Shown here: in pieces, positions 14,014 through 62,900 of the stretch
Position numbering within the stretch: the first letter of the stretch is position 1
Layout of the letters: each line of letters begins with the position of its first letter
Origin: an uncultured Gammaproteobacteria bacterium
Lineage (GTDB): Bacteria > Patescibacteriota > Patescibacteriia > Magasanikbacterales > UBA922
Assembly: GCA_964447765.1 (NCBI GenBank)
Contig: CAYUTO010000004.1
Span: 22,561 to 86,560 of the forward strand
Reading direction: 5' to 3'
DNA: 64,000 nucleotides
Program-made: the position numbers and the translations under genes
The notes under the pieces: generated by a model
Databases searched by the model: none
Seen by the model: the letters and a program-made list of their open reading frames with translations, nothing else
Told to the model about the DNA's origin: nothing

Positions 14014-14448
14014 TTACAGTACCAATTTTCCTCCAGCCTTTTCAATGGCTTGTAGCGCAGTTTTAGTAGCGAGACAATCGTGCAACACTACTTTTTGAGT
14101 GAGGACACCTGTAGCTACAATTTTTACTCCAGCACGTACATTATTGATGATACCATGAGCCTTGAGTACGTAAGGAGTGATTTCAGAAACAGTCGAAGCG
14201 AGCGTATTAAGCTGACTCAAAGATACGGTTTCAGGCTTAAGAGCACTTGAGGTAAAACCACGAGATTTTGGAACTTTCTGAAGCTGTGCTTTAAATGCAC
14301 GACGCATAATACCACCTGCGCCTGCTCGAGCTTTTTGCCCTTTAATACCACGGGTAGAATAGCTTCCCTTTCCGCTGGAATTACCACGACCCACACGTTT
14401 AACGTTTCGCTTGCGGCCTCGTGAACTGATTGTTGAAGGGGTTAACAT
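14014..14448 (-). CDS. rplO: 50S ribosomal protein L15
   Basis: Gly/Arg-rich N-terminus (RGRGNSSGKGSYSTRGIKGQKARAG); position between rpsE and secY. Confidence 0.85.
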   Translation of the reverse strand: MLTPSTISSRGRKRNVKRVGRGNSSGKGSYSTRGIKGQKARAGAGGIMRRAFKAQLQKVPKSRGFTSSALKPETVSLSQLNTLASTVSEITPYVLKAHGIINNVRAGVKIVATGVLTQKVVLHDCLATKTALQAIEKAGGKLVL

Positions 14449-14474
14449 ACAAAAAAATTTATAAATGCCTTATA

Positions 14475-15122
14475 CTAAGCTACTGATTCAGCAGCTTTCT
14501 TTGGCGCAGCTTTTTTTCCACCAGATGCTCGTGTTTTTCGTTTAGCACCATCTTCTTCCACCACAGAACTCACAGATTCAGAAGTTACTGAAGTAGAAGG
14601 AGCTTCTGCTGGACGACGATCTTGTGAAAGTGTTCGAATTGCTTGTTTTTTGAATTTTTTCAAAGCTTCAAAAGTGGCTTTTACGTTTACTACTTTATTA
14701 TTAGTTTTTCCTAAGATTTTTCCTGACGCATTTCCTACTCCTGCAAGATCAAGGACCATACGTACGGTACTTCCAGCAATAATTCCAGAACCTTTTGGAG
14801 CCGGCTTAATCATGATTTTTCCAGCTTTGAATTTTGCTTCCACCCGGTGAGGGATCGTGCCATTGAAAATAGGAACAGTCAAAATATTTTTCTTTGCCTG
14901 ATTTACAGCCTTATCAACTGCAATCTGAACGTCTTTTCCTTTTTCAATTCCATAAGCGACTCGTCCTTTGCGATCTCCAATAAGGACACATGCTCGAAAA
15001 CTCATGTGTTTTCCACCTTTGGTAACACGTGTTACGCGGGCAAGATCAACAATAGTCTGATCGAACTCAGGTTTTTCTTTAGGCATTCGGCTGCCACGTT
15101 CAGTGCGTTTTTGATTAGACAT
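14475..15122 (-). CDS. rpsE: 30S ribosomal protein S5 with a Lys/Ala-rich C-terminal tail
   Basis: Conserved S5 core (RVTKGGKHMSFRACVLIGD...KPAPKGSGIIAG). Start trimmed to the ATG at 15122; the track ORF overlaps rplR. Confidence 0.85.
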   Translation of the reverse strand: MSNQKRTERGSRMPKEKPEFDQTIVDLARVTRVTKGGKHMSFRACVLIGDRKGRVAYGIEKGKDVQIAVDKAVNQAKKNILTVPIFNGTIPHRVEAKFKAGKIMIKPAPKGSGIIAGSTVRMVLDLAGVGNASGKILGKTNNKVVNVKATFEALKKFKKQAIRTLSQDRRPAEAPSTSVTSESVSSVVEEDGAKRKTRASGGKKAAPKKAAESVA

Positions 15123-15141
15123 ATAGCTAGTCTTATAATGG

Positions 15142-15516
15142 TTAGAATGTGAGCCCGCCATCTCGTGCCCCATCAGCAAACGCAGCAATGCGTCCGTGAT
15201 AAGTGAATCCCCCACGATCAAATACTACCTCAGTAATATTTTTTTCTTTTGCTTTGAGTGCAATTTCGTGTCCGAGAAGATATGCAAGTTTTGTTTTTCC
15301 TTTTCGTTCTCCTGCATCAGCAGTGGTAGTAAGTGTACCAGTACTTGAAACACCCGCAATAGTAACGCTCTTACTGTCATCAATAAGTTGCCCATACATA
15401 CTAAGTAAACTTCGGTACACTGAAAGACGAGGTCTAAGAGCAGTACCAATTACCTGTTTGCGGATTCTTTTGTGTCGTCGCACGCGATATGCGCTGCGTG
15501 TATTAGCTTGTTTCAT
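15142..15516 (-). CDS. rplR: 50S ribosomal protein L18
   Basis: Basic N-terminus RVRRHKRIRKQVIGTALRPRLSVYRS; operon position. Confidence 0.85.
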   Translation of the reverse strand: MKQANTRSAYRVRRHKRIRKQVIGTALRPRLSVYRSLLSMYGQLIDDSKSVTIAGVSSTGTLTTTADAGERKGKTKLAYLLGHEIALKAKEKNITEVVFDRGGFTYHGRIAAFADGARDGGLTF

Positions 15517-27107: not shown

Positions 27108-28613
<1,506 letters not shown>

Positions 28614-30059: not shown

Positions 30060-30497
30060 TCAGCTCATCGGAATGACGTCGATATCACCGAAAAGCGACT
30101 TGATCTCCTCGGGCGTGCCAAAGAGTTTTTTGTCCTCATCCGACAGGTAGACCCGCAGATACCCGGAACGCTGTAGAATCGCGTCGTGTACCAAGTAGAA
30201 CACCACCACCTCGTAGAATCGATCCACGATCTGATTGTGGATCTGCCCGATCAGGAGCATGGCACGAGGCTTCTCCTCATAGTACGCAATACTGCGCACG
30301 TACAGAGGGAGTTTATCAGGGAAGACACCTCGCCCGTCGACGTAGAGCGGGGCAGGCTGACGATCCGACGGATCGTAGTAACTGCGATTGGACGCGTACA
30401 CATCCCAGATATTTGGGTTGTGCTCACTCGTAACGATCGGAAGGGTGATAAAATCTTTCCCTTCCTCACCAACAGACACCGTAAACGTAGCTTCCAT
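30060..30497 (-). CDS. Hypothetical protein (145 aa) in a G+C-rich islet
   Basis: ORF with SD GAGAGGA 6-7 nt upstream of the ATG at 30497. The ORF-track N-terminal extension was not used. Confidence 0.45.
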   Translation of the reverse strand: MEATFTVSVGEEGKDFITLPIVTSEHNPNIWDVYASNRSYYDPSDRQPAPLYVDGRGVFPDKLPLYVRSIAYYEEKPRAMLLIGQIHNQIVDRFYEVVVFYLVHDAILQRSGYLRVYLSDEDKKLFGTPEEIKSLFGDIDVIPMS

Positions 30498-30683
30498 GAC
30501 GATCCTCTCACGGCTTGGTAAAAACACGATGCTGGCACCGTAAACCAGACAAGAAAAAATATCATATACGATAAAAAATGTCAATAATAAAATTCCTCTG
30601 TATTAAGGAATTTTGACTCTATCGCATCTGCCGAAGCCTAAAAGCCCCGACAGATGCGATCACCGATACAGAAATCACGATGC

Positions 30684-30977
30684 TCACCGATCCAGAACGA
30701 ATGTGTACGTCACCGCTCGCACCCAGAAATGAAGGAACTTCTCCGAAGGTTTGTAGTACCGATCGATCAAGACGATTCCGTCGTAATTGATAGTACCAAA
30801 CCATACCGTTGGTTCAAGCACCACCTCTTCCTGCGTACCACACTCAGGTTTCCAGTTGAGATAAAAATTACTACCCTGGAGACCCGCGAAAAAAACACGC
30901 CCCTTCCGTGTTCTTCCGTTTGAAAAATGCTCGGTAACCGAAACACCAACAAAATCAATATCACAGAGATCTTCCAT
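30684..30977 (-). CDS. Hypothetical protein (97 aa) in a G+C-rich islet, upstream partner of 30060..30497
   Basis: SD GAGGAGG 9 nt upstream of the ATG at 30977. A hairpin separates the two genes. Confidence 0.45.
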   Translation of the reverse strand: MEDLCDIDFVGVSVTEHFSNGRTRKGRVFFAGLQGSNFYLNWKPECGTQEEVVLEPTVWFGTINYDGIVLIDRYYKPSEKFLHFWVRAVTYTFVLDR

Positions 30978-35313: not shown

Positions 35314-35742
35314 TTATTTCTTTGCAGCTTTTGGACGTTTTGCTCCATAAATTGAGCGACTGCGTCTTCGAGCTTCTACTCCCTGTGTGTCATACACTCC
35401 ACGAACAATATGATAACGTACACCAGGTAAATCTTTTACACGTCCACCACGAATAAGCACGATTGAGTGTTCCTGCAAATTGTGTCCCTCGCCCGGAATA
35501 TAAGCGATAATTTCTGATCCATTAGAAAGACGAACTTTCGCTACTTTTCGAAGAGCTGAGTTAGGTTTCTTTGGAGTCATGGTATACACCTTGGTACACA
35601 CACCACGTTTAAATGGTGCTCCGCGACGAAGTTCAGTTCGTTTGCGGTGTAAACTGTCGAGCGTAAACTGGAGCGCTGGAGACTTGGATTTATTTTTCCG
35701 TGTGATCCGTCCCTTGCGCAAAATCTGATTCATCGTAGGCAT
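35314..35742 (-). CDS. rpsL: 30S ribosomal protein S12
   Basis: [12 protein letters not shown]...[12 protein letters not shown]...; conserved S12. Confidence 0.95.
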
Positions 35743-36033
35743 AGTCTGATTTGCTAAATTAAACTTATAAATAAATTAAAATGCCCCTGGTAGGGCACGT
35801 TCAGACAAACAAAATGAGTGTTTATCGAACGTTTGAGAGCTAATACAAGCTCTGAGACGCTTCACCCTCGAAAATTGAGGATTACTACGTTCTTATACGT
35901 CTTTAGGTGACGTAGGCAGAATATACCTGATATAAAGACATATGTCAAGACAAGAAGTCACCATCGTTGACCAATCCAGTCATACACTATACTATATCCG
36001 AAGTTCAACAGTTCTGTTCTTTCAGGGAGGAGT

Positions 36034-37014
36034 ATGGAAAAATTTCCGAAGCATGTTCTTAGCTCAGACCAGTTCAGTCCCGAAATGATCGAATACCTCT
36101 GCGGTCAGGCAGAAGACATCCGTGCGATCATGGAGACTGGCAAGAAACGCCAGCTTCTCGGAAAACTGCACGGAATGAGCATGTTCACAGTATTCTACGA
36201 GCCTTCGACTCGCACACGTTTTTCCTTCGAACAGGCAGGAAACGTGTGTGGTATGCACAAGTGCTCTACCGAGAATGCCGAGATAACCTCTTCAGTCTCC
36301 AAGGGTGAAAACCTAGAAGACACGGTGAAAACGCTCTCGGGATACTACCCAGATGTATTCGTGCTGCGGCACAAAGTGAAAGGAGCAGCAAAACGCGCAG
36401 CAGAAGTAATCGATGAGAAGAAAAAGAACGTGCACATCATCAACGCAGGTGATGGTAAAGGAGAACATCCTTCACAAGCACTCCTCGACTTCTACACGAT
36501 CTGGCAAGCCAAAGGAAGAAAGCTCGACAATATCCGAATCATGTTCGGAGGCGATCTGAAATACGGGCGTACTGTTCGTTCTCTCGCGCGTGTACTTGCC
36601 AAGTACCCGGGGATTACGATGACGTTCGTAGCGCCTGAAGCGCTCCAGGTCGCAGAAGACATCCGTGCAGACCTCGACACCCATCAGATACCCTACACGC
36701 TCGAATCAGATCCGATGAAGGCGTTCCCGGAAGCAGACGTGATCTATTGGACGCGACTGCAGAAAGAGAGAATCGAAGACGAACGTACACGTATCGAACT
36801 CGAGGAAATTGAACGAAAAGGAACGTACAATATCGGATCGCCACAGCTCTCAGTCATGAAGCCAACCGCGAATATCCTTCACCCACTTCCCCGTGTCGGA
36901 GAAATCCTGCACGAAGTGGACCAAGATCCACGGTCGTGGTACTTCACACAAGCTGAAAATGGGCTGTACATCCGTATAGCGCTCCTGCTGGAGCTGCTCC
37001 GCGAGTCGGAGTAA
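36034..37014 (+). CDS. pyrB: Aspartate carbamoyltransferase catalytic subunit (orphan; G+C-rich)
   Basis: STRTRFSFE, HPSQALLD, GDLKYGRTVRSL and HPLPRVGEI motifs closely match PyrB. SD GGGAGGAG upstream of the ATG. Confidence 0.85.
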   Translation: MEKFPKHVLSSDQFSPEMIEYLCGQAEDIRAIMETGKKRQLLGKLHGMSMFTVFYEPSTRTRFSFEQAGNVCGMHKCSTENAEITSSVSKGENLEDTVKTLSGYYPDVFVLRHKVKGAAKRAAEVIDEKKKNVHIINAGDGKGEHPSQALLDFYTIWQAKGRKLDNIRIMFGGDLKYGRTVRSLARVLAKYPGITMTFVAPEALQVAEDIRADLDTHQIPYTLESDPMKAFPEADVIYWTRLQKERIEDERTRIELEEIERKGTYNIGSPQLSVMKPTANILHPLPRVGEILHEVDQDPRSWYFTQAENGLYIRIALLLELLRESE

Positions 37015-37016
37015 CC

Positions 37017-37055
37017 AAAAGCCGGCCTCGAAAGAGGCCGGCATCTACATTTTTA
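37017..37055. terminator. Hairpin terminator between the convergent pyrB and M50-protease genes
   Basis: aaaagccggcctcgaaagaggccggc followed by a T-run. Confidence 0.6.
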
Positions 37056-37059
37056 GAGA

Positions 37060-37677
37060 CTACATAAGAACTTTACTTCCTACAAAAAGTTGAAAAATAT
37101 ATTGAATCACCGGACTCATAACCCCAGAAAAAAATAAAATAAACGCGATCAGAATCATAAAACCATATCGCTCAAGTATTTCTTTGACCTTCCACATTGA
37201 ATCTGGAAGTATTGCGTACAACACTTTTGATCCATCAAGCGGAGGAATCGGCAGAAGATTGAATACAGCAAGACCAATATTTGCGTATACAATAATCGAA
37301 AAAAACAACGTCATGTCACTAATCGGAAGCACACGAATAACAATGCTAAACAAAAACGCAAGAAATAGATTAGACAAGGGACCCGCAAGCGCCACCCACA
37401 TCGGACCGGTTTTCTGATTTTTCAAATTATAGGGATTGTATGGGACTGGTTTTGCATAGGCAAACAAAAATCTACCCCCGGTCGAAAGATACAAAAAAAT
37501 AGGCAAAATAATCGTTCCCCAGAGATCAATATGGGATTTTGGGTTGAGAGTTAGTCTCCCTGCATAGCGGGCCGTAGGGTCCCCCATTCGATCTGCAACC
37601 CATCCATGCATATATTCATGGATAATGGCTGAAGGGATAATAACGAGAAGATAAAAGAATGCAATAAGATTATCCAT
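37060..37677 (-). CDS. Site-2 protease / peptidase M50 family membrane metalloprotease
   Basis: HEYMH (HExxH) within a TM helix, LTLNPKSHIDLWGT, and several TM segments. Start set at the ATG at 37677 so that the CDS does not overlap rpmB; it remains uncertain. Confidence 0.65.
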   Translation of the reverse strand: MDNLIAFFYLLVIIPSAIIHEYMHGWVADRMGDPTARYAGRLTLNPKSHIDLWGTIILPIFLYLSTGGRFLFAYAKPVPYNPYNLKNQKTGPMWVALAGPLSNLFLAFLFSIVIRVLPISDMTLFFSIIVYANIGLAVFNLLPIPPLDGSKVLYAILPDSMWKVKEILERYGFMILIAFILFFSGVMSPVIQYIFQLFVGSKVLM

Positions 37678-37772
37678 AGGATCCTGACTTGACAAAAAGA
37701 GAATAATAGAATACACTTCTGCGCATAACGCCGTATCAGTATATCCTCTATTCTCTTCTAACGTCAACCAGT

Positions 37773-37979
37773 ATGCGAAAATGCGAACTATGTAAAAAAG
37801 GCTCAGTAAGTGCAGCAAATCGAAGTCATTCAAAAGTGAAGACACTTCGCAAACAACATGCAAACCTCCAGAAATTTATGGGGCTCATGCTCTGCAGTTC
37901 ATGCCGACGAACGATCCAAAAAAGAGTAACCGAAGCTGCTACTCCAAAAAAAGCAGTGAAAGTAGCTCAAACAAAGTAA
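37773..37979 (+). CDS. rpmB: 50S ribosomal protein L28
   Basis: MRKCELCKKGSVSAANRSHS...NLQK matches the L28 family pattern; 68 aa; strong downstream terminator. Confidence 0.75.
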   Translation: MRKCELCKKGSVSAANRSHSKVKTLRKQHANLQKFMGLMLCSSCRRTIQKRVTEAATPKKAVKVAQTK

Positions 37980-37994
37980 TCATTTCAAAAAATA

Positions 37995-38028
37995 AAAATA
38001 CTCTCCAAATCGGAGAGTATTTTTTTAT
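37995..38028. terminator. Bidirectional hairpin terminator after rpmB and trhO
   Basis: aatactctccaaatcggagagtatt followed by ttttttt. Confidence 0.7.
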
Positions 38029-38039
38029 CATCACAGTTA

Positions 38040-38966
38040 TTATTCAAACCGAGCTGGAGGCCGCTTCATACTATCATCACTTTCTACAATCTTTTTACAT
38101 TCAGGAGAACATGCACCGTTGAATTTTTCAACACAGCCATCACAGCCAATAAATAATCTATTACACTCTTTGTACACACAATTGCGATACGTGTCACACA
38201 AAACTCCACAAAGTAAACACTTCCCCACAATCTCTTCAGTATCAGTATGATTCACACGCAAAGCAATTCGATCATCAAACGTAAAGCATTTTCCTTCAAA
38301 AAAACCTTCATTACCATATTTCTCAGCATACGTTACGATTCCCCCATCCAACTGATAAACCTGACTTTTATCAAATCCATAAGCAACGAATAGTGCTGAA
38401 GCCGGTTCACAACGCACTCCCCCAGTACAATACATTACAATCTTTTTTCCCTTGAACTGACCATAAAAATCCATCACGTCTTTCAGATCACGAAAATATG
38501 ATACAGGCGGACGGATAGCATTTTTGAAACGACCGATATCGTATTCATAATCATTCCGCATATCAATAAGAATCATCTCTTCTCCGCGACTAAGCCATTT
38601 ATGGAATGTATCACGATCCACATGTTTTCCACGCTTGGTCCAATCAATAGCATCTTTAATTTCAGTCGTAATAATTTCGTCGCGATGTCGTACACGAAGT
38701 TTCGGAAATGGAAGAAAATCAGCAGTATGTTCTTTCCAGTCAATTTTTTTATATAACCGATGCTGATTCATGTACGCTTTATAGAGCTCAATACTTTCTT
38801 TGGTTCCACCAACATTTCCATTAATACCATAATCACCAATAAGAATTCGTCCTTTGATACCCAAAGCAAGACAAATCTCTTTGTGCATTTCAACTTCTTT
38901 CGCTGGATTCTTGATGTTTACAATTTTGTAATACAGTAAGGTATGGAACATATAAAAGTCTATCAA
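38040..38966 (-). CDS. trhO: Rhodanese-domain protein of the TrhO/YceA (tRNA U34 hydroxylase) family with a Cys-rich C-terminus
   Basis: Rhodanese active-site region MYCTGGVRCE; C-terminal CxxC clusters. Confidence 0.75.
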   Translation of the reverse strand: MIDFYMFHTLLYYKIVNIKNPAKEVEMHKEICLALGIKGRILIGDYGINGNVGGTKESIELYKAYMNQHRLYKKIDWKEHTADFLPFPKLRVRHRDEIITTEIKDAIDWTKRGKHVDRDTFHKWLSRGEEMILIDMRNDYEYDIGRFKNAIRPPVSYFRDLKDVMDFYGQFKGKKIVMYCTGGVRCEPASALFVAYGFDKSQVYQLDGGIVTYAEKYGNEGFFEGKCFTFDDRIALRVNHTDTEEIVGKCLLCGVLCDTYRNCVYKECNRLFIGCDGCVEKFNGACSPECKKIVESDDSMKRPPARFE

Positions 38967-39056: not shown

Positions 39057-39061
39057 ATTCG

Positions 39062-39134
39062 TCGGGCTGACACGACTTGAACGTGCGGCCTCATGACCCC
39101 CAGCCATGCGCTCTACCAACTGAGCTACAGCCCG
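39062..39134 (-). tRNA. tRNA-Pro (anticodon GGG)
   Basis: Manual fold of the reverse complement: acceptor CGGGCTG/CAGCCCG, D-arm GCTC-AGTTGGTA-GAGC, anticodon stem CATGG/TCATG with loop CTGGGGG, T-arm GCACG-TTCAAGT-CGTGT, discriminator A, no encoded CCA. Confidence 0.8.
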
Positions 39135-40126
39135 ATTTAAGCCAATTACCAATAAAACAATTATCAACTAACAAATTGCATAAAATTGTATTTTTGTTAG
39201 TTGTTCCTTGCTCATTGTTCCTTATCCCCAGCATATTAAAACAAAAAACCCTTTTTTTCAAGAGTTCCTTGTATGACCCCAGAGAGGTGCAGTACGAAAT
39301 ACTACTCCTGAATGAAACAGGTGGGTAGCCGCACTTCTAGCCCACGGGCTAGAAAAATATAGGCCTCCCTATGTAGTATATTTGTAGAATAGTATATGTA
39401 CTGTACCACTAGAACCAGGGTCAATTCAAATATACCAAGACGTTCAAAATTGTGCAAATGTGACTCATCCACTACTTAGAACTCTCTAAATACTGGAGGA
39501 GAGACGACCAGGTGAAACAGGTCGCCGAGAAACAAAAGAACAATATACAGCCATGAAAGATCAAGCGCGATAACGCATAAGTCGAGATACCAACTCACAC
39601 GTTACCACTCGATTCTACTCTGACCTCACCTAAGAGTCGTGATTACCTCGCTGCCGTTTGACAGGAGTCGAGACAGGCGCCACTTGTGCCTCAGGGAGGA
39701 AGCGATGTCGACATCCGCGAAGGGAAGCAGGCTCGGGACGAGCCATCTCACTGCTTCGCGGAGGAACCGCTGACTTTTTCTTGAACTTGGCCAAATTCTT
39801 GGCCCACACTTGATACACAGAACCTTCAGGCATGATTACCCTAACGAGCATGCTCGATTGAATATTCTCAAACTTTGAGAAAACTCGCACAAAGCGGAAT
39901 TCAGTCTAAATAAAAATCTTTTTACACCAACACCAACTTACTCTAAAGACATTGAATAAGAATACAAAAATAAAAAAAACTTGTAAAGAATAGTACTACT
40001 AATTCCTTACAAGTTATTCACAGATACATACCACTGTATTCCTATGATGAAAAACAATGGCATATGGGCGATCGATGAGTGGAGTACTCATCGATCGCCC
40101 GGGAAAAAAGAACAAAAACTCGAGAA

Positions 40127-40345
40127 TCAGGCCGCACTAGCGACCTCAGGGACAGGTGGATACGCCGGCGTGTAAGCGCCCGTCCTCGTAACCGCGATGG
40201 TCCGCTTGCACTCACAACCGACGCGATAATCACCATTGCTGCATGGCTCCACGGTATCGATCTTACCGGCACCGCACGAACACTGGAAGTGCTCGCCTTT
40301 CTTGAGATGCTCAATCCGCACCACTCCTTTAATTCCCATAAACAT
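40127..40345 (-). CDS. Small Cys-rich protein (72 aa) in a G+C-rich islet
   Basis: SD AAGGAGAG 7 nt upstream of the ATG at 40345; six Cys (QCSCG...C...GCEC). Several overlapping frames are also open in this GC-rich DNA. Confidence 0.35.
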   Translation of the reverse strand: MFMGIKGVVRIEHLKKGEHFQCSCGAGKIDTVEPCSNGDYRVGCECKRTIAVTRTGAYTPAYPPVPEVASAA

Positions 40346-40459
40346 ACACACTCTCCTTGTGTGAAATAAAGACAAGAGAAACGAAAGATGGGTTGACGAG
40401 TGCGACAACGTGAGAGCTGGAGTTTCCAACTAAGCACGTTGCCGCTCTCAAACGATCGA

Positions 40460-40669
40460 TCAGTCGCCGAACTTGTACCGCAACTCCGAGCGGTCGCGAG
40501 AAGCGATCTCACGATCCCAGACCGCAGCGATCCGGTCGTCGAGGAGGACGGGCGCGGTATTCTTGCGCTCCTTCTTACGCGAAGGGGCGAGAACCGCCTC
40601 CGAGGACTTGATGGACTTGGCGTCGAGGTTCAGCTGCTGTGACGGCAGCTTGGAATTATCTCCAGACAT
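40460..40669 (-). CDS. Small basic protein (69 aa) in a G+C-rich islet
   Basis: ATG at 40669 preceded by GGGGGA; the choice of frame is uncertain. Confidence 0.3.
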   Translation of the reverse strand: MSGDNSKLPSQQLNLDAKSIKSSEAVLAPSRKKERKNTAPVLLDDRIAAVWDREIASRDRSELRYKFGD

Positions 40670-41171
40670 AGCATTCCCCCGAAATTCTCTCGCATGGCAT
40701 TGCAAGAGCAAAGTCGCTCATACAGGCTTCCCCACCGCGGGTAGACTTGTTCAAGCGAGTTTTATATATACACCACAATGTACAAATAACACTCGCCGAT
40801 CAAAGTCTACAAACGTAAATTTCAATATAAACTTTTGAAAGAACTATTTCCCGATATGCGGGAAGAAGAATGTACAAAAGGATACACACTCTTCTTCACG
40901 TATATTTTCCAGAAAAAAAGACCCCAAACACTTGATTGTGCATGGGGCCTAGAAGGTTTAAGGTTACATGAATCTATTTCATCTCAAACCACTTCTTACC
41001 CCATGCGTATAATCCACCATTGCAAAACAAAAGTTCACCTTGCAAAGGCGGTTGAGAATGAGAGTAATAATTGTATGAGAAAATAATTTCATAAGTTTGT
41101 TACAACACATATCTGACTATAACTCTGAATTTTTACGCGGTCAAGTTTTTTGAAGTTACTTATCCACAAGT

Positions 41172-41220: not shown

Positions 41221-41703
41221 TTACACTCTCTCATCTTCAGTATACACATGGAGATAATCACTCTTCTCATATCCATGCAATTCATCCGCTTTGAAAAAGC
41301 GTTGTACTTCGGCTTGCGCAGCTTCGACAGAATCTGATGCATGAATCACGTTACATGCGACACTCATAGCATAATCTCCTCGGATAGACCCAGCTTCAGC
41401 AGTCCGAGCTTTGGTAATTCCAGTAATGAGCCGTATTGCATTCACTACTTCAAGCCCTTCCCATACTTGCACAATCACGGGTGAGCTCATCATAAATCGC
41501 TCCACTCCAGGATAAAAAGGTTTTTCAGCAATATGAGAATAATGCTCACGAAGAACTGCTTCTTCGAGCCTCATCATTTTCATACCTACCAATTTCAAAC
41601 CCTTCTGTTCGAATCGATCGGTAATCTTACCTACCAACCCGCGCTGGATTGCGTCTGGCTTAATAATTACAAGTGTTTTTTCTTCTAATCCTTCAAATTT
41701 CAT
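41221..41703 (-). CDS. ndk: Nucleoside diphosphate kinase
   Basis: Conserved NDK block KTLVIIKPDA...NVIHASD. Confidence 0.9.
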   Translation of the reverse strand: MKFEGLEEKTLVIIKPDAIQRGLVGKITDRFEQKGLKLVGMKMMRLEEAVLREHYSHIAEKPFYPGVERFMMSSPVIVQVWEGLEVVNAIRLITGITKARTAEAGSIRGDYAMSVACNVIHASDSVEAAQAEVQRFFKADELHGYEKSDYLHVYTEDERV

Positions 41704-41843: not shown

Positions 41844-42740
41844 ATGGCACTTGCTTTTGAACGAAATCTTGATGGTCTAAAAAACCATGAACCAAAAAAA
41901 AGGAAAAAGCGTGAGATAAAATTAAAAGAAATACCAGATGCAGAGATGGTTCTTGAACCAGAAGAAGAAAACAAATATGAAGGATTTCATAAATTAATTC
42001 AAGATACATCTGAATCTGATGAAATTCTAGAAAAAATTGAAAAACATCCTGAAGTTAAAAAAGCATTTGATCAGTGGAAAGATGTATCGGAAGACGTTAT
42101 TGGAAATAGTATTTCAAAAGAAGAAGCAATTCATTTCCTTGACTGGGCAATGGACAATAAAAAAATTGATTTCTCTGAATATGATGATGCATGGGAGCTC
42201 TATCTCAAACTCAATGCGCATAATGCATCAAAAAAATCCCACAACATAGACCAACAATCTATCAAAAGAATTTCAGATACTATTGCTTCTCTACCAGATA
42301 AAGCAGAAGGATTTACTCCCACAGAAGACAACCGAAAGCTTGTACTTTACCGTCAACGATTCGAAGAAGTCTATGGCATATTACTAAACGACGAGGGTAA
42401 TCCAGCATCACAGTCAGATGAAGATAAAGTATCAAAAATGATGAGCCTCGTTGATGCAGATGTAAAAAAAATTCAACGCTCTGGAATCCTTGGAAAAATT
42501 AAAGGATTGGTGAGCGATCTCATGGCGTCAGACCAAGACCGACTCCAGGCGCAAGCATTTCAAAGAGATTTCAGTGAATACAATAGATTGTCACAAGAAG
42601 TTTCTGCTGCACGATATAACCCAGATGACTTTGAAGAAACTAGTAACACAGAGGTAGAAGAAGTGGAAAATAAAAAAACAAGAAAGACAAAACCTGCAGC
42701 ACGACGCACCAAGAGACCTCGAAAAGAAAAACTATCCTAA
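41844..42740 (+). CDS. Hypothetical Lys/Glu/Asp-rich protein (298 aa)
   Basis: ORF with an extended -10 region (tgctataat) about 30 nt upstream and a terminator downstream; no recognisable domain. Confidence 0.5.
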   Translation: MALAFERNLDGLKNHEPKKRKKREIKLKEIPDAEMVLEPEEENKYEGFHKLIQDTSESDEILEKIEKHPEVKKAFDQWKDVSEDVIGNSISKEEAIHFLDWAMDNKKIDFSEYDDAWELYLKLNAHNASKKSHNIDQQSIKRISDTIASLPDKAEGFTPTEDNRKLVLYRQRFEEVYGILLNDEGNPASQSDEDKVSKMMSLVDADVKKIQRSGILGKIKGLVSDLMASDQDRLQAQAFQRDFSEYNRLSQEVSAARYNPDDFEETSNTEVEEVENKKTRKTKPAARRTKRPRKEKLS

Positions 42741-55784: not shown

Positions 55785-56534
55785 TCAGGTCGGGAGGTAT
55801 CCCGACGCAGAACCGTTGTACGGACTAGCTTCATCGATCCAGCGTGCACTGAAATACAGACAATCCATGTTCTGAATATTGAAGTTCGGGGCGCACATTT
55901 CTCGTCCAAGGAGATCCAACGGATCGTATGCATCTCCAGCACAATCGATATTCAAATCACTACGATGCTGCAGACGTTCAGGATGCGTCAGAAGCATGGT
56001 CCCGACCATGTATGAGTCGAGACCGAACTCATTTCGACCGAACATCTCACGCGCTCGACGGATCGAACGTCCGCGGTGACGGAGTCCGAATTGAGCAGGA
56101 ATGATGAGGATATCGCCCGACTGTTGTTCCGTGAGCCGCGTGAGCCATGTCCAGTGCAGAGACTTCGTGCGGTGTATCTGCTGCGGAACGAACTTGGAAT
56201 TTCCAAGACGCACGCCCGTGCCACGACTCAGACGAAGCGCTGCCAGCACATGAGCCAACTGATTTGTCTCTTTTTCAAACGTACGAGAGTCACTACCATC
56301 ATGGCAGTACAGATTCTTCGGTCGGACGAGAGCGAAGGGGTCCTCCACCCACCTGGGAATCTTGAGGTTCGGATACACCTCGCGCATGTACCGCAGAGCA
56401 GGATCAGGATCCAGATTCGACCAGTGAGACCGGATGATGTCGATCTGGTCCTCCACACTCTTCGGCTTCTCATAGCCAGAGTAATAACCCCACTTGGACA
56501 CCTTCTCTTCGTTAGCGAATCGGTTGCTCATCAC
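55785..56534 (-). CDS. Hypothetical protein (249 aa) in a G+C-rich islet
   Basis: Uninterrupted ORF, visibly GC-richer than its neighbours, with a hairpin downstream (gaagcccg...cgggcttc); no recognisable domain. Confidence 0.45.
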   Translation of the reverse strand: MMSNRFANEEKVSKWGYYSGYEKPKSVEDQIDIIRSHWSNLDPDPALRYMREVYPNLKIPRWVEDPFALVRPKNLYCHDGSDSRTFEKETNQLAHVLAALRLSRGTGVRLGNSKFVPQQIHRTKSLHWTWLTRLTEQQSGDILIIPAQFGLRHRGRSIRRAREMFGRNEFGLDSYMVGTMLLTHPERLQHRSDLNIDCAGDAYDPLDLLGREMCAPNFNIQNMDCLYFSARWIDEASPYNGSASGYLPT

Positions 56535-56673: not shown

Positions 56674-59600
56674 CTATTTCAACTCTTCACCATCCTCATA
56701 CACTTCATTCTCATCAATTACGATGATGCGATCTCCTCTAAAGTTAAGTTTAGTGAATGCATCTTCAGTTACGATCCATCGTTTGATGAGCTTAGATGAA
56801 TCAGTAGGATCTACTTCAAGACGATACACTTTGGGAGAAGTAGTATATTTGATGAGGGTGTAGGCAGGATGAACGTCGGTTCTCGTAATCTCTTCACCCA
56901 CCTTATATGCATCAAGAAGACGAGGGTCTACATCTTCAATCCAGTCTGAGCGATAGTTCAACTTGTTGAACACTTCTTCACTGGTAATCCAGTATTTCGT
57001 ATCATTAATGAGTACATAGACTTTAGGATCATAGGGAGTTTTAATGAGTGCTCCATAGGTTGGACGATACAGGGGTCCGAGAGGTAAGAATGACAGCGGA
57101 TCAAGAGGGACTGAAGTGAGGGTTACATTGGTAACCACACCTACATCACTCCATGATGAGAAGTAAGTAAAATACGTTCGTTCATTCGGAATTGGCCGCC
57201 TCGTACAGTCTGACGTGACATAGAATACTGAAGGAGAGCCTGATGATTTATATGGCTGCTCCGGAGTAAGTGGACATGCGTTTGAGGTAAGGGTAATCGT
57301 GTCTGAAAGAATGAGTTCTCCCCCTTCAGGAGTTCGTAATTTAACGTATACGGTCTTTTCTCCATTCCCAAGAGGGAGCGTGTACCAGAGTGGAGAGATG
57401 AGTGATTCAAATGATCCATTGGCGAATGTAGGGTCAGTAGAAACAGCAACCATGGAAGCATTAGGTGAAGTTATATGCAGAGACACCAAGCGACTGTTTG
57501 TTGAGAGTGCTCCCTGGTTGATCGTGAAGTGAGATGCTGAAGACGGAAGGGTGGGAGGAAGGTATGGGATACCGCCGTTTGAGGAAGATGTATCGTTAGA
57601 GTCACTGTCACCCTCCCCTTCTTCACCCATCAGAGCAAAAAGTGAGAATCCAGGAGTGTCACAGGTGACGGTAAAAAGACTCGTGTTAATTGTGCACGGA
57701 GAGAGTTCGGTCCATGTGCTAGTTGCATAACGATAAATAACTAAGGTAGTAGGGTCGAGACTCCCAAGTGTATCTGGATCGTAGGTCATGGTGAGTTCAA
57801 TTGGTTCATCGAATTCTGAGATGATAGTTGAGGTGTTTGCAATTGCTTTGAGATGAAAAACGAGAGAACCAACGACTGTTCTACCAGCAGGAATGCCTCC
57901 GTCTTCAATCACCGTTACAGTATCTACTTGTTTAATCTGGAACACAACATCAGTGGAAGTAGTAAATGCAGGAGGAATATCAAGAGCAATACTCTCAGCT
58001 ACCGTCTCAAGTTGAATAGTAGCACCTAAACTTGAAGAAACTGCAGAACTCTCTGAAGCAATTACCGGCGCTGAAAATGAACACCCTTGAGTCACAAACG
58101 TGCGATGAGAACTAGTTGCAACATCACCATCAGCTGTCACAGCACGAGGAGTGTAGTGATAAACCGTACAAGGTAGTAACCCAGTCATCAAAACTTCATG
58201 AGTAGTAACTCTGGAAGATGTATTACTCTCAGTAGTCGAAACTCCCAGTGATGCAACCAACCCATACAACACTCGAGATGAAGCAAGTCGATTAGTAGAC
58301 CACGAGATAGTAGCAGTTGAAGTGCTGATATTAGTTGAAGTGACACTAGAAATGCTTAATAGTGCGTTAGTGATAGTAGAAGTAACAGAAGAATACGCAC
58401 TCGAAGTCGATACGTTATCAGCGCGCACTTGAAATGAATAACTAGAATTAGGAGTGAGTCCAGTAAAAGTATAACTTGTCTCAGTAGTAGTAACGACTGA
58501 CCCCACAGTACTAGAGATAGAGTAGAATGTTGCACCTGCAGCAGAAGACCACGACAATTGAACTGAAGAAGTAGAAAAAGTACTTGTAGTAAATTCAGGA
58601 GAGGAAAGACTAGTCAATTCTGAAAATGTCAAAATATATGCAGCTCCTGAATTAGAACCATTTACATTTGTTTCACTTGGAGCACCTACAATCAACACAT
58701 CATTAGTTTTATCAAAAGAAACCTCAACACCAAACCATGAATCAATACTTGCATCAGATGCAACCAATTTTTCATTCTCTTCCCAATCTCCACTTTCTCG
58801 GTCAAAAATATATACGGCTCCAGTGTCAGTAGTATTACCAGATGCACCAATCGCAACTTTCTCACCTAGACCATCGATTGCAACAGCTTCACCAAAAAAG
58901 TTACTTGCTGCAGCATCACTTGCGACAACCTTTTGATCTAATGACCACGATACCCCACTCCGCACAAAAACATACCCCGAACCAGAAGCACTCCCAGCGT
59001 CATCATTTGAATAAGCTCCAACAACGACATACTCCCCTGAATCAGAAATGGAAACTGCATTACCAAAAAAATCACTAGCGGCAGGATCATTTGCATTTAG
59101 TTTTGCCTGTTGAGCCCAAGTACTGGTCGTACGATAAAACACATAGGCAGAACCAGAACTAAGAGCAGTATCATCATCATTCGGAGCTCCGACAAGTATA
59201 TAATCACCTGATTCTGAGATATCTACAGCTCGACCAAACCAATCGTCAGCCGCCCGGTCGGTAGGAACTATTTTTTGCTGTTGTGACCATACTCCACTTC
59301 CATCTCTTTTAAAAATATATGCAGAGCCTGCTGCACTCAATGTATTAGCACCCGCAGCATCCTGATCCTCGCGATATGCACCAATAATTGCATATTCACC
59401 CGCCATAGCAAGTTTATCACCAAAAAAATCTTGATTTGCAAGATCACTTGAAACAAGTCTTTGATGAAGATCCCATGAGGAGCCCGTACGTTTATAGACA
59501 AACACCGCACCAGCCTGCGACCCATCATTATGGTCGGTCACCATAGCATAATCACCCGCAATCGCTACATTTTCCGCAAAAAAAGTAGAACCAGTCGATG

Positions 59601-59868
59601 TGGTAATCATCGCCTGCTGAATCCAAGAACCATCCTCAAAATGAAAAATATAAGCTTTCTTTTGATTATCAACTCCAACTATTGCATAGTCGCCAGAGAC
59701 ATCAACTGAGTATCCAAATCCCTGACTAGCCACTCCATCTGAAGGAAGAATTTTAGCATCTTCTACCCAAGCGGCCCGAATAAAATCAAAATGAATATAA
59801 AAAGATAAAAAACCAAAAGCAATAATGCTTAAAATCCAAAAAGATTTGTTAAAAAGAAATTTTTGCAT
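56674..59868 (-). CDS. Giant secreted or surface-anchored protein (1064 aa): N-terminal signal/anchor, FG-GAP-like beta-propeller repeats, two FN3-like domains, conserved C-terminal module of about 450 aa
   Basis: N-terminal hydrophobic segment. Repeats of the type DFFGxAVxIxxxGDYxxVGAP. FN3-like segments (LSWSSAAGATFYSIS...SYSFQVRADN). The C-terminal region is nearly identical to its downstream paralog. Confidence 0.7.
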   Translation of the reverse strand: MQKFLFNKSFWILSIIAFGFLSFYIHFDFIRAAWVEDAKILPSDGVASQGFGYSVDVSGDYAIVGVDNQKKAYIFHFEDGSWIQQAMITTSTGSTFFAENVAIAGDYAMVTDHNDGSQAGAVFVYKRTGSSWDLHQRLVSSDLANQDFFGDKLAMAGEYAIIGAYREDQDAAGANTLSAAGSAYIFKRDGSGVWSQQQKIVPTDRAADDWFGRAVDISESGDYILVGAPNDDDTALSSGSAYVFYRTTSTWAQQAKLNANDPAASDFFGNAVSISDSGEYVVVGAYSNDDAGSASGSGYVFVRSGVSWSLDQKVVASDAAASNFFGEAVAIDGLGEKVAIGASGNTTDTGAVYIFDRESGDWEENEKLVASDASIDSWFGVEVSFDKTNDVLIVGAPSETNVNGSNSGAAYILTFSELTSLSSPEFTTSTFSTSSVQLSWSSAAGATFYSISSTVGSVVTTTETSYTFTGLTPNSSYSFQVRADNVSTSSAYSSVTSTITNALLSISSVTSTNISTSTATISWSTNRLASSRVLYGLVASLGVSTTESNTSSRVTTHEVLMTGLLPCTVYHYTPRAVTADGDVATSSHRTFVTQGCSFSAPVIASESSAVSSSLGATIQLETVAESIALDIPPAFTTSTDVVFQIKQVDTVTVIEDGGIPAGRTVVGSLVFHLKAIANTSTIISEFDEPIELTMTYDPDTLGSLDPTTLVIYRYATSTWTELSPCTINTSLFTVTCDTPGFSLFALMGEEGEGDSDSNDTSSSNGGIPYLPPTLPSSASHFTINQGALSTNSRLVSLHITSPNASMVAVSTDPTFANGSFESLISPLWYTLPLGNGEKTVYVKLRTPEGGELILSDTITLTSNACPLTPEQPYKSSGSPSVFYVTSDCTRRPIPNERTYFTYFSSWSDVGVVTNVTLTSVPLDPLSFLPLGPLYRPTYGALIKTPYDPKVYVLINDTKYWITSEEVFNKLNYRSDWIEDVDPRLLDAYKVGEEITRTDVHPAYTLIKYTTSPKVYRLEVDPTDSSKLIKRWIVTEDAFTKLNFRGDRIIVIDENEVYEDGEELK

Positions 59869-59929: not shown

Positions 59930-62900
59930 TTATTCCAAACTTTCACCATCTTCATACACTTCACTCTCACCAATCACGATGATTCGATCTCCTCTGAAGT
60001 TGAGTTTCTTGAACGCGTCCTCAGTTACAATCCAGCGCTTGATAAGTTTGGTTGCATCAGTAAGATCAACTTCAAGACGATAGACCTTGGGGGAATTTTG
60101 GTACTTAATCAGAGTGAACGCAGGATGAACGTCAGTTCGAGTTATTTCTTCTCCTACATTATATGCATCAAGAAGACGAGAATCTACATCCTCGATCCAG
60201 TCTGAGCGATAGTTAAGTTTAGCGAATACTATCTCATCCGTGACCCAATATTTGGTGTCGTTAATCAAAACGTATACTTTGGGATCTCCCGGTGTCTTGA
60301 TGAGTGCTCCATAGGTAGGACGGTACAAAGGACCAAGAGGAAGGAAAGAGAAAGCATCGAGAGGCACTGAAGTAAGAGTAGCAAGAGATACAACACCTAC
60401 ATCGCTCCATGATGAAAAGTAAGTAAAATACGTTCTTTCATTCGGAATTGGCCGTCTCGTACAGTCTGACGTGACGTAGAATACTGAGGAAGAACTCAAT
60501 GTTTTGTAGGGACGCTCTGGTGTAAGTGGGCATGCGTTTGAGGTTAGAGTAATAGTATCTGAGAGGATGAGCTCTCCCCCTTCAGAGGTTCGTAATTTGA
60601 TATAAACCGTCTTTTCTCCATTCCCGAGAGGGAGTGTATACCAGAGTGGAGAAATCAGTGATTCAAATGATCCATTGGTAAATGTAGAATCAGAAGAGAC
60701 AGCAACCATCGAAGCATTAGGTGAAGTTATATGCAGAGACACCAAGCGACTGTTTGTTGAGAGCGCTCCTTGATTAATAGTAAATTGAGATACCGAAGAC
60801 GGAGGGGCGGGAGGGATATATGGGATACCACCGTTTAAGGGAGATGTATCACCAGCACCACCCTCATCATCCCCTTCTTCTCCCATAAGAGCAAAAAGTG
60901 AGAATCCAGGGGTGTCACAAGTAACGGTAAAGGCGTTCGTATTTACAGTGCAAGGAGAAAGTTGTGTCCATTCGTCATCAGTATATCTAAAGATTGACAA
61001 CGTCGTTGTATCAATCCCCTCAAGGTCACTTGGATCATACGTCATAGTAACCTCAACCGGTTCATCAAAAGTTGAGATAATAGTTGAAGTGTCTGAAATA
61101 GCTTTAAAATCAAAAACAAGAGACCCGATAATATTTTTACCCGCAGGCAACCCTCCATCAGTCGTAACAATATCCTTCTCAAGTCGCTTGAGCTGAAAAG
61201 CGGCGGCAGTCGTACTTGTAAATCCAGTTGGCACAGTAAGGGAAACCCCGTTACCTGATTCCAAAAACGTAATCGACCCTCCAGACGAAGAAGACACTAC
61301 GGAAGCTTCATGAGATATAATTGGTGCAGAAAATTGACACCCCCGAGTAGCAAAGGTGCGTTTAGAACTCGTAGTAAAATCTCCTGATCCTGCAACCGCT
61401 CGAGGTGTATAATTATAAACCGTACAAGGAACAAGATTAGTAAGAGAAACCTCATGATCAAGAACTCGAGTGAGTGTATTGATTTCTGTAGTAGACACAC
61501 CGAGGGAAGTAATAAATCCGTATAAAATTCGAGAAGACGCAGGGCGGTTCGTAATCCAAGAGATAGTTGCAGTCGAAGTTCCAACGTTAGTTGAAGTCAC
61601 ATTTGAAATAACAAGAGTTGGTTGTGTTGAGGTGGTAAAAACAGAAGAATAAGAACTTGAAGTTGATAAATTATTTGCTCGTACTTGGAACGAATAACTC
61701 GTATTAGGATTAAGTCCAGAAAAAGTATAATTAGTTGCAGCAGTAGTAACTGGAGAAGTCGCAGTTGAAGAAACAGTATATGAGGTTGCACCAGAAACAG
61801 GTGACCATGAAAATGGTATAGAAGCTGCCGCAGCGGTAAAAGAAACAAACGAAGGAACTCCAAGAGAACTTCCCTCGGAGAGGGTGAACATCATAATTCG
61901 AGAATTCCCATTATCAGCCACATATAACCGATCATTATTAGAATCATAGGTTACCCCCTTAGGTGTTGCAAATTTTGATTGCGAAGCAGAGCCTGCTGCA
62001 CCCGTAAAATCAGTCTGCCCAAGAACATAACTTGCATTCATGCCATTTGAAATTGTGGTTGTTGAAAAGTCATATACTACCACTCGATCACTATCATTAT
62101 CTCCCACAAATAAACGTTGATTTTCTGCATCATACGCAAGACCTTGCGGATCATCTAATCCCGATTGTGTTGCAGCTGCAGAACTCCCTGTAAACGTTGA
62201 CTGACCAAGAACATAACTCGCACTTGGAAAATCAACTTCAGTCGTATTTGCAGGCGAAGCATCAAAAATAGATATTCTGTGAGCTGTAGTTTGAGTAACA
62301 TACAGACGTTCATTATCAACATCATAGGTCACGCCTCGCGTGCTAGGTAATGATGAAGTACTGATACCTGAATAGCCATTATCGAAATCCGGTGCACCAA
62401 AAATATATTTAGCATTCATACCATTTGAAATGGTACTCGTTGCAACATCGAACACAATAACTACTGCACCGCCCACAAAAAGTCGCTGATGTACAGGGTT
62501 ATAAGCCAACCCTGCTGGACTTGATAAACCTGCTTGTGTACCTAAAGCACTACCGTTCGTAAATAGAATCTGTCCAAGAACATAATTAGCAGGCATGCCG
62601 TTCGAAATTGTCGTTGTAGAAAAATCGTATACCTTAACACGATTATTACCTGTATCAGAGACAAACAAACGATTACTCACCAGATCATATGCAAGTCCGT
62701 CAGTATTATTGAAACCTACTTGGGTAGTCGCCGAACTATTGCCAGTAAATAAAGCTTGTCCAAGAATATGTAACGCAGGCTTACCATTTGAAATAGTCGT
62801 TGTGGAAAAATCAAAAATACTTACACGATTCGAATTAGACACAAAAAGTCGGCTATTATTTGAATCATACACGAGACCGTCAGGTGAAACCAATCCTACC

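Follow-up and report, generated by a model that had tools for sequence, protein, structure and literature searches.

The pyrB gene at positions 36034 to 37014 of the 64,000-nt stretch of contig CAYUTO010000004.1 analyzed here (the window) was annotated as the catalytic chain of aspartate carbamoyltransferase (ATCase, EC 2.1.3.2), and it occupies a slot that is empty in some closely related genomes and filled by strongly diverged alleles in others. We consider it likely that the gene specifies a competent ATCase and is carried on a polymorphic, self-contained 1.1-kb cassette, old alleles of which are exchanged by recombination among related bacteria that belong to the Candidate Phyla Radiation (CPR, or Patescibacteria). 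The slot lies between the divergent rpsL-rpsG-fusA operon and the convergent gene of an M50 peptidase. Its parts, in window coordinates and with the means by which each was defined, are as follows.

35920-35948, minus strand: rpsL promoter (TTGACA, 17 nt, TATATT; 11 of 12 matches), in the left flank and the last conserved core sequence; promoter scan.
35950-37053, plus strand: pyrB cassette of 1,104 bp (promoter, 5' untranslated region, pyrB, predicted hairpin terminator), which comes and goes as a unit; empty-site comparison.
35960-36990, plus strand: allele-variable core of the cassette, taken as the tract replaced by recombination; sliding identity, alignment and synonymous divergence (dS).
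35967-35995, plus strand: sigma-70-like pyrB promoter (TTGACC, 17 nt, TACTAT); promoter scan.
36025-36032, plus strand: Shine-Dalgarno sequence GGGAGGAG, directly before the ATG at 36034; read from the sequence.
36034-37014, plus strand: pyrB coding sequence, 326 aa, ATCase catalytic chain of the E. coli/plant/archaeal ('ATC II') type; open reading frame (ORF), hidden Markov models, alignment and structural model.
37021-37042, no strand assigned: G+C-rich hairpin GCCGGCCTC-GAAA-GAGGCCGGC, separating pyrB from the convergent M50 gene; terminator scan.
37060-37863, minus strand: peptidase M50 (site-2 protease) gene, right flank, with its stop codon 6 nt from the cassette end; Pfam.

Look-ups of the closest PyrB and M50 homologs retrieved the same locus in 17 further contigs from other samples. 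In seven of these, pyrB was found between rpsL and M50 (L003, L005, and an allele common to L004 and L100-102). In eight, representing four lineages (L086-88, L089/90, L091/92 and L098), rpsL directly adjoined M50, and the other two (L096 and L097) stopped at M50, leaving the state of the slot unreadable. The window allele itself was also present in two Logan contigs (L001 and L002) of the window's own organism. Three states of the slot thus occurred among relatives with flanks 88-99% identical: empty, occupied by a pyrB with 54-57% protein identity, or occupied by the window allele. Assemblies GCA_964435035.1 and GCA_052033375.1 represent empty sites, GCA_965084955.1 a second allele, and JGI 3300005689 and 3300014773 a third. 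BLASTN homology of the empty-site contigs L086, L089 and L091 to the window ended at 35949-35951 and restarted at 37042-37075, and the four empty-site lineages had the same breakpoints. At the cleanest empty junction (L089/L090), GTCAAG was joined directly to TAAGACTACAT. The points at which homology stopped and restarted, taken with this clean junction, delimit the variable unit as 35950-37053; it begins one base past the -35 hexamer of the rpsL promoter. In L086, a TTGACT box remnant and the cassette's final 11 nt remain as a deletion scar. Two exact-pattern scans of metagenome contigs with conserved 20-22-mers of the rpsL leader disclosed no further sites, the second pattern matching all 12 syntenic loci. 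The pyrB cassette is, then, an accessory trait, outside the conserved backbone, in a subset of Candidatus Magasanikbacteria, and its loss from the nearest relatives implies that pyrB is dispensable in some settings.

The expression signals travel with the gene. The -35 and -10 boxes of pyrB are kept among the window, L005 and L003 alleles amid diverged surroundings, and AAGGAG or GGAGG is found at the equivalent Shine-Dalgarno position in other alleles. The hairpin at 37021-37042, which is kept in L005 and missing from empty sites, appears from its sequence to be a bidirectional terminator and part of the cassette. The interval first annotated for the gene ended at 37055 and therefore comprised the coding sequence, this hairpin and ~11 extra bases.

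Divergence of the alleles is confined to the cassette. Between the window and L003 or L005, the proteins encoded in the flanks were 96-99% (S12), 98% (S7), 98.6% (EF-G), 96.6% (M50) and 96% (NT5C) identical. Against L005, identity was 99.3% for S12 and 96.6% for M50, but 56.6% for PyrB; against L003, it was 98.6% for EF-G and 54.4% for PyrB. The PyrB proteins of L003 and L005 were 84% identical to each other. At the DNA level, identity to L003 and L005 fell from ~93% to ~60% between ~35960 and ~36990 and recovered within ~20 nt, with the promoter boxes, the final 25 nt of pyrB and the terminator spared. Using the Nei-Gojobori method, pyrB of the window and of L003 or L005 gave a dS of 2.0-2.4 (saturated), a nonsynonymous divergence (dN) of 0.34-0.36 and a dN/dS of 0.15-0.17, whereas six flank gene comparisons gave a dS of 0.21-0.39 and a dN of 0.003-0.043. 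Over all pairwise pyrB comparisons, dN/dS was 0.14-0.22. The pyrB alleles are old lineages under purifying selection, and the combination of saturated dS with strong purifying selection speaks against pseudogenization as well as against selection-driven divergence of one resident copy. These values indicate that old allele lineages have been set into young backgrounds.

The relationships of the alleles differ from those of the flanks. Among 5.8 billion clustered proteins, identity above 53% was found only in three alleles at the same rpsL/M50 locus of sister genomes. The best named relatives among the GTDB matches listed were Saccharibacteria (46-50%), and next among them, at 44-48%, were Paceibacterota, Terriglobia and Chloroflexota, with high-GC Chloroflexota, Terriglobia and Dormibacterota also at 44-48%; neither the window's own genome nor any syntenic locus was among the GTDB pyrB matches listed. 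A neighbor-joining tree of 170 sequences placed the four alleles in one clade (bootstrap 70-71%), with P0007, an allele at an unrelated locus (signal peptidase/pyrB/KhpA), as its sister (48-49%). In this tree, the window allele fell outside the group of L004, L003 and L005 (69%, as against 23% for the flank-congruent alternative). The flanks, in contrast, group the window with L003 and L005, the M50 identity of L004 being 77%, so the position of the window allele in the pyrB tree conflicts with the flank relationships. A PyrB phylogeny had been proposed at first pass as the way to the donor clade; from the tree that we built no donor clade emerged, none can be named from these sequences, and they give no sign of a high-GC host.

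The gene itself is an ordinary ATCase gene, and the notable part is its population genetics. The first-pass annotation, made from the sequence alone, had recognized the PyrB catalytic chain by its hallmark motifs, and that assignment holds. All four motifs occur in it (STRTR, residues 58-62; HPSQ, 145-148; GDLKYGRTV, 173-181; HPLPRV, 283-288), and the protein passed the cut-offs of two NCBIfam equivalog models, TIGR00670 (282.8 bits; cut-off 236.95) and NF002032 (272.7 bits; cut-off 263). Pfam identified OTCace_N (PF02729) at residues 6-157 (6e-39), then OTCace (PF00185) at 166-319 (1e-26). Models of ornithine transcarbamylase (OTCase) and putrescine transcarbamylase were far under their cut-offs, the best OTCase model scoring 119.9 against a cut-off of 306. 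The residues that bind carbamoyl phosphate and aspartate, S52, T53, R54, T55, S80, K84, R105, H134, Q137, R167, R229, Q231 and L267 (E. coli numbering), are kept in all four alleles; S52, T53, R54, T55, R105, H134 and Q137 are ligands of carbamoyl phosphate, and K84, R167, R229 and Q231 are signs of aspartate specificity, as is HPLP where OTCase has HCLP. In the alignment to E. coli PyrB, the sole motif change was a conservative T136S, a neighbor of the ligands, which is found in the window allele only and accounts for its HPSQ reading.

Structural modeling was consistent with this assignment. The AlphaFold2 model had a predicted local distance difference test score of 90.0 and a predicted template modeling (TM) score of 0.90, and all of the top 50 Foldseek matches in the PDB were ATCases. 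The best match was Arabidopsis PYRB with N-phosphonacetyl-L-aspartate (6yw9/6ypo), with TM values of 0.89/0.94, a root-mean-square deviation of 1.7 A and 44-45% identity. Scores were ~200-247 bits against E. coli, archaeal and plant chains and ~115 bits against B. subtilis-type chains, and 'ATC II', the name used above for the former group, we take to be that of Labedan's classification. From sequence and model, we infer that PyrB is catalytically competent, converting carbamoyl phosphate and L-aspartate to N-carbamoyl-L-aspartate. It shares the two-domain fold and active-site residues of Arabidopsis and E. coli-type ATCases but differs from the E. coli type in having no pyrI, in lacking the 240s-loop residues E239 and Y240, which serve the allosteric transition in E. 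coli, in two insertions of its own, and in that its gene is carried by a CPR genome on a cassette that varies between strains. One of these clade-specific insertions, of 4-5 residues, lies ahead of the INAGDG motif in the four alleles, and the second is in the 240s region. In the absence of pyrI and of conserved allosteric residues in the 240s loop, PyrB is predicted to be an unregulated catalytic trimer. The ATCase of Bacillus subtilis is presumably also an unregulated trimer (class C), and the window PyrB probably works likewise, its catalytic trimer acting by itself and lacking a regulatory chain. The B. subtilis enzyme belongs to another sequence sub-family (115 bits), however, and its gene is part of a full pyr operon, unlike the lone pyrB of the window.

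The compositional distinctness of the gene, also claimed at first pass, was confirmed. The G+C content of pyrB was 0.510, with 0.566 at third codon positions (GC3), as compared with 0.413 for the window and a GC3 of 0.308 +/- 0.033 for 50 core genes (z = +7.9). In 50 GTDB loci examined, the G+C content of pyrB mostly followed that of its locus, a few exceeding it by ~0.05 to 0.07, whereas the excess here was 0.10. Every allele of the window pyrB clade was 0.07-0.10 above its locus, with a GC3 of 0.52-0.59. P0007 likewise formed an island of 0.558 in a background of 0.402; it has its own promoter, and its terminator stem, ACGCCGAC/GTCGGCGT, matches the terminator stem of L100. High G+C in all alleles and in P0007 implies that G+C-richness is a stable attribute of a mobile pyrB clade in A+T-rich CPR genomes. 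It may reflect a history in a G+C-richer CPR gene pool, or a recombination-associated GC bias; the genome names of some Sungbacteria and Kaiserbacteria indicate 54-60% GC.

As for mechanism, related genomes would swap pyrB alleles by homologous recombination within the CPR gene pool. Homology for the exchange would be supplied on the left by rpsL and its leader, both highly conserved, and on the right by the cassette end or M50. Natural transformation is a plausible means of DNA entry: com genes are conserved across CPR, and natural transformation has been demonstrated to insert a cassette via homologous flanks in Saccharibacteria (PMC10633639). A patch of S12 in L003 (8977-9000, rpsL codons 13-20; window 35683-35706) reads VSKRSKSQ and resembles the distant L004/L100 lineage (VSKRTKSK), not the close relatives (ITRKNKSK). 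Its sequence suggests a small mosaic beside the cassette, possibly a recombination tract that spilled into the flank. Accessory islets are known to be replaced via homologous recombination in conserved flanks, including by homology-facilitated illegitimate recombination in competent bacteria. Like the window cassette, they occupy a fixed slot, are present or absent with identical junctions, and show divergent alleles in near-identical backgrounds with no integrase; their flanks are also conserved, and few sequences in the window genome are as conserved as rpsL and its leader. The window cassette differs in carrying a housekeeping-type biosynthetic enzyme rather than surface-antigen, defense or resistance genes, and in a cargo with a G+C content above that of the host; as a rule, acquired DNA is A+T-richer. 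A phage- or plasmid-like carrier was rejected because viral and phage collections hold distant copies of pyrB only (IMG/VR, <=49% identity; INPHARED, <=40%).

Several points weigh against exchange of a competent enzyme on such a cassette. There is no integrase, transposase or clear target-site repeat beside the cassette, only a 4-5-nt AGAC microhomology at the junctions, and no donor genome with the window allele in a background of matching G+C content was found. The GC3 of 0.52-0.59 persists, with no explanation, over alleles with dS >1.5 in genomes with a GC3 of ~0.30. Between L003 and L005, polarized third-position changes were mixed, at few unambiguous sites: those from strong (G or C) to weak (A or T) numbered 9, versus 8 from weak to strong, on one branch, and 13 versus 4 on the other. 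The trees are neighbor-joining trees only, with moderate support (69-71%) at key nodes. In addition, pathway context is judged from the 64-kb window of a 160,648-bp contig, and ATCase activity is inferred only, from sequence and model.

Within the window, pyrB stands alone, as had been said for pyrI, pyrC and carAB from a reading of its neighborhood. Six Pfam-verified proteins of the Alicyclobacillus pyr operon (pyrR, pyrC, carA, carB, pyrF and pyrE; pyrB lies within the full operon in the Alicyclobacillus locus L046) were used as tblastn queries and gave no match in the 64 kb, also at E <= 1. E. coli PyrI and PyrD queries gave noise only in the window (best E 0.57 for PyrI, the partner of PyrB in the regulated class B holoenzyme, PyrB6-PyrI6); a true pyrI was found beside pyrB in seven other loci, and genuine PyrD homologs were found in other loci. 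A Pfam scan of 30 ORFs of the window (the larger ones that could not be recognized by eye and a few that could) disclosed no pyr gene. Nor were carA/carB, pyrC, pyrD, pyrE or pyrF, which with pyrB make up the de novo pyrimidine gene set (KEGG M00051), found in the flanks of seven syntenic, pyrB-positive contigs from other samples. The cassette has no second ORF, and the window holds no carbamate kinase or other partner. The pyrB neighborhoods in 12 other CPR loci were all different, with no shared partner (carbamate kinase, pyrI or dihydroorotase). Exceptions among CPR pyrB loci were Saccharibacteria L057, with pyrC-carA-carB-pyrB, and Yanofskybacteria L024, with pyrD ~8 kb from pyrB. De novo nucleotide synthesis is lacking in 93% of Patescibacteria genomes, and the phylogenetic distribution of genes of this kind is scattered (bioRxiv 10.64898/2026.06.21.733656). 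Our literature search found no paper on an orphan ATCase in CPR.

PyrB could therefore catalyze a step of a pyrimidine pathway encoded elsewhere in the genome, or it could be a stand-alone enzyme. The second option, that the ATCase acts outside a full pyrimidine pathway in a nucleotide-auxotrophic episymbiont and is kept as a conditionally useful cassette, with alleles maintained by recombination or balancing selection, is possible though in our estimate rather doubtful. As an example, the enzyme could join carbamoyl phosphate, derived from the host or from arginine, to aspartate, and the resulting carbamoyl-aspartate could be traded with the host; or the reaction could go backward, yielding carbamoyl phosphate for ATP formation. 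Either frequent recombination (GC-biased conversion) or balancing selection would then keep ancient, persistently G+C-rich alleles in the pangenome of Magasanikbacteria. If the rest of the pathway is truly lacking, a selected stand-alone ATCase would hint at an unrecognized metabolic hand-off between episymbiont and host. Mammal-associated Saccharibacteria have reportedly acquired an arginine deiminase system, which is likewise a carbamoyl-phosphate-linked, transcarbamylase-family, horizontally acquired and lineage-variable accessory trait in CPR. That system is a multi-gene catabolic operon with OTCase and carbamate kinase, however, whereas the window has a single ATCase gene.

The first option raises the question of whether pyrB is simply a vertically inherited core gene of a complete pyrimidine pathway, with the other genes elsewhere and its composition incidental. 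The multi-gene pyr clusters of some CPR (L057 and L024), the frequent scattering of pyr genes in bacteria, and the purifying selection on pyrB, which implies that the enzyme is in use, are all in keeping with this explanation. We nevertheless regard it as unlikely, since the cassette is precisely absent in the closest relative (M50 96.6% identical) and in three further lineages, PyrB identity drops to 54-57% between flanks that share 96-99%, the relationships in the gene tree are not those of the flanks, and de novo nucleotide synthesis is missing from 93% of Patescibacteria (bioRxiv 10.64898/2026.06.21.733656). A complete pathway elsewhere still fits the cassette model; only the terms 'core' and 'vertical' are contradicted.

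The first-pass annotation had suggested that the gene was acquired horizontally, possibly from a high-GC donor (a host, for example), and might be recent and non-functional. The mobility that it supposed is borne out by the empty sites and divergent alleles. A single recent transfer from such a donor, of a gene not yet functional or already decaying, appears very unlikely, despite a GC3 that is 7.9 standard deviations above core genes, the absence of pyr neighbors and the ability of CPR organisms to take up DNA (PMC10633639). Nothing above 57% identity was present in the 5.8 billion clusters, everything above 53% came from the same locus in sister Magasanikbacteria, and the best named relatives among the matches listed were CPR, not Actinobacteria or Chloroflexi hosts. 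The cassette was found in four lineages, with saturated dS between alleles, and is therefore old. Decay of the gene is contradicted by the dN/dS of 0.14-0.22, the catalytic residues kept in all alleles, and the intact promoter, Shine-Dalgarno sequence and terminator.

We give very little credence to in-place hyper-evolution, in which a resident copy diverged fast by positive or diversifying selection or by local hypermutation, with no exchange of DNA. The clade is rather fast (mean identity to other ATCases 49-50%, against a typical 52-57%, mostly 54-57%), other G+C-rich stretches of the window also outpace their flanks in divergence, and pyrB of L003 and L005 differs 2-3 times more than the flanks do. 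However, a dS of ~2 at a dN/dS of 0.15-0.17 implies that the divergence does not come from selection on the protein. The boundaries are also sharp to ~20 nt, the divergence does not extend to the promoter boxes or terminator, and the window allele falls outside that of the more distant genome L004. Features of a diversity-generating retroelement were absent around pyrB, and such an element was rejected as a candidate, as the divergence spans the whole gene, including synonymous sites, and there is no template/variable repeat pair.

An assembly or binning artefact, in which a fragment of a G+C-richer organism was joined to a CPR contig, can be dismissed with near certainty: the composition does jump exactly at the gene boundaries, but two independent Logan contigs from separate sequencing runs (jointly covering 35627-38342) are 100% identical across both junctions, so the cassette is no assembly chimera, and the same architecture was found in five further contigs from other samples.

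The locus shows at base-pair resolution how the 'scattered' distribution reported for biosynthetic genes of CPR/Patescibacteria arises. A single enzyme gene, set out as a promoter-to-terminator cassette beside a highly conserved gene, is lost or swapped among genomes that are locally ~90-99% identical, which provides a concrete example of gene flux driven by recombination in ultrasmall, uncultivated bacteria thought to depend on a host for nucleotides.

The identity of the organism as a CPR bacterium, as supposed at first pass, follows from the names of its M50 homologs (Candidatus Magasanikbacteria, <=88% identity). The window holds the S10, spc and str ribosomal gene clusters. In the spc cluster, at 14014-15221, S5 is followed directly by L15 with no L30 gene between them, and a lone 16S rRNA gene occurs at 27109-28612 (minus strand), with no 23S, 5S or spacer tRNA gene and one tRNA-Pro within the 64 kb; a lone 16S and the lack of L30 are typical of CPR.

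The 5' leader of rpsL-rpsG-fusA, a 173-nt segment (35743-35915, minus strand) between the promoter and the start (35742) of rpsL, is strongly structured, with a minimum free energy of -49.2 kcal/mol (z = -5.0 versus shuffles). It is conserved in eight relatives, and RNAalifold predicted five hairpins with 41 pairs, seven of which have compensatory double changes. The last hairpin and its U-run resemble an intrinsic terminator, as in an attenuator. No Rfam match was obtained for the leader at E <= 1, and its sequence makes it a candidate for an undescribed ribosomal-protein leader.

Most variable stretches in this genome exceed the core in G+C content, contrary to what is usual for acquired DNA. 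A second G+C-rich gene, at 55785-56534 (minus strand; 249 aa, GC3 0.59), had no Pfam or PHROG match. Its product is a member of a hypothetical-protein family spread across CPR (Paceibacterota, Sungbacteria, Kaiserbacteria, Liptonbacteria and others), and the profile of identities is shaped like that of pyrB, at 100%, 87% and then 53%. Between tRNA-Pro (39061-39134) and ndk (41221-41703), a 1.4-kb stretch at ~39440-40840 has a G+C content of 0.48-0.52; it yielded no convincing ORF, nor any identity in Pfam or Rfam. Its identity to L086 is 76% (flanks 88-91%); L089 lacks part of it and L091 all of it. In relatives, this interval contains a PF05635 (23S_rRNA_IVP/Avd-like) gene, which is missing from the window. 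The stretch may consist either of small, fast-evolving genes or of an uncharacterized RNA. At 30060-30584 (minus strand), a G+C-rich ORF of 174 aa (GC3 0.62) with no assigned function is replaced in L003, a relative otherwise 91-93% identical, by an unrelated G+C-rich ORF of 122 aa (L003 3407-3775), which makes this a further G+C-rich slot that varies; conservation of the adjacent 97-aa ORF (30684-30977) is 86%. PHROGs and Pfam gave nothing for the other G+C-rich ORFs of the window. An A+T-rich (GC 0.36), Lys/Glu-rich ORF of 298 aa at 41844-42740 (plus strand), with no Pfam match, had no match in L086 and only 113 nt at 73% in L089; being variable yet A+T-rich, it shows that not every variable segment is G+C-rich.

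A sub-threshold match to 6S RNA was obtained at 39272-39424 (minus strand; 36.4 bits versus a gathering threshold of 46.4, E = 3e-5), in a segment 93% conserved in L089. Finally, two large proteins predicted to be located at the surface are encoded on the minus strand at 56674-59868 (1,064 aa; FG-GAP repeats, fn3 and a purple-acid-phosphatase N domain) and 59930-63922 (1,330 aa; NHL repeats, fn3 and a purple-acid-phosphatase N domain), and their domain content makes them possible host-interaction proteins.

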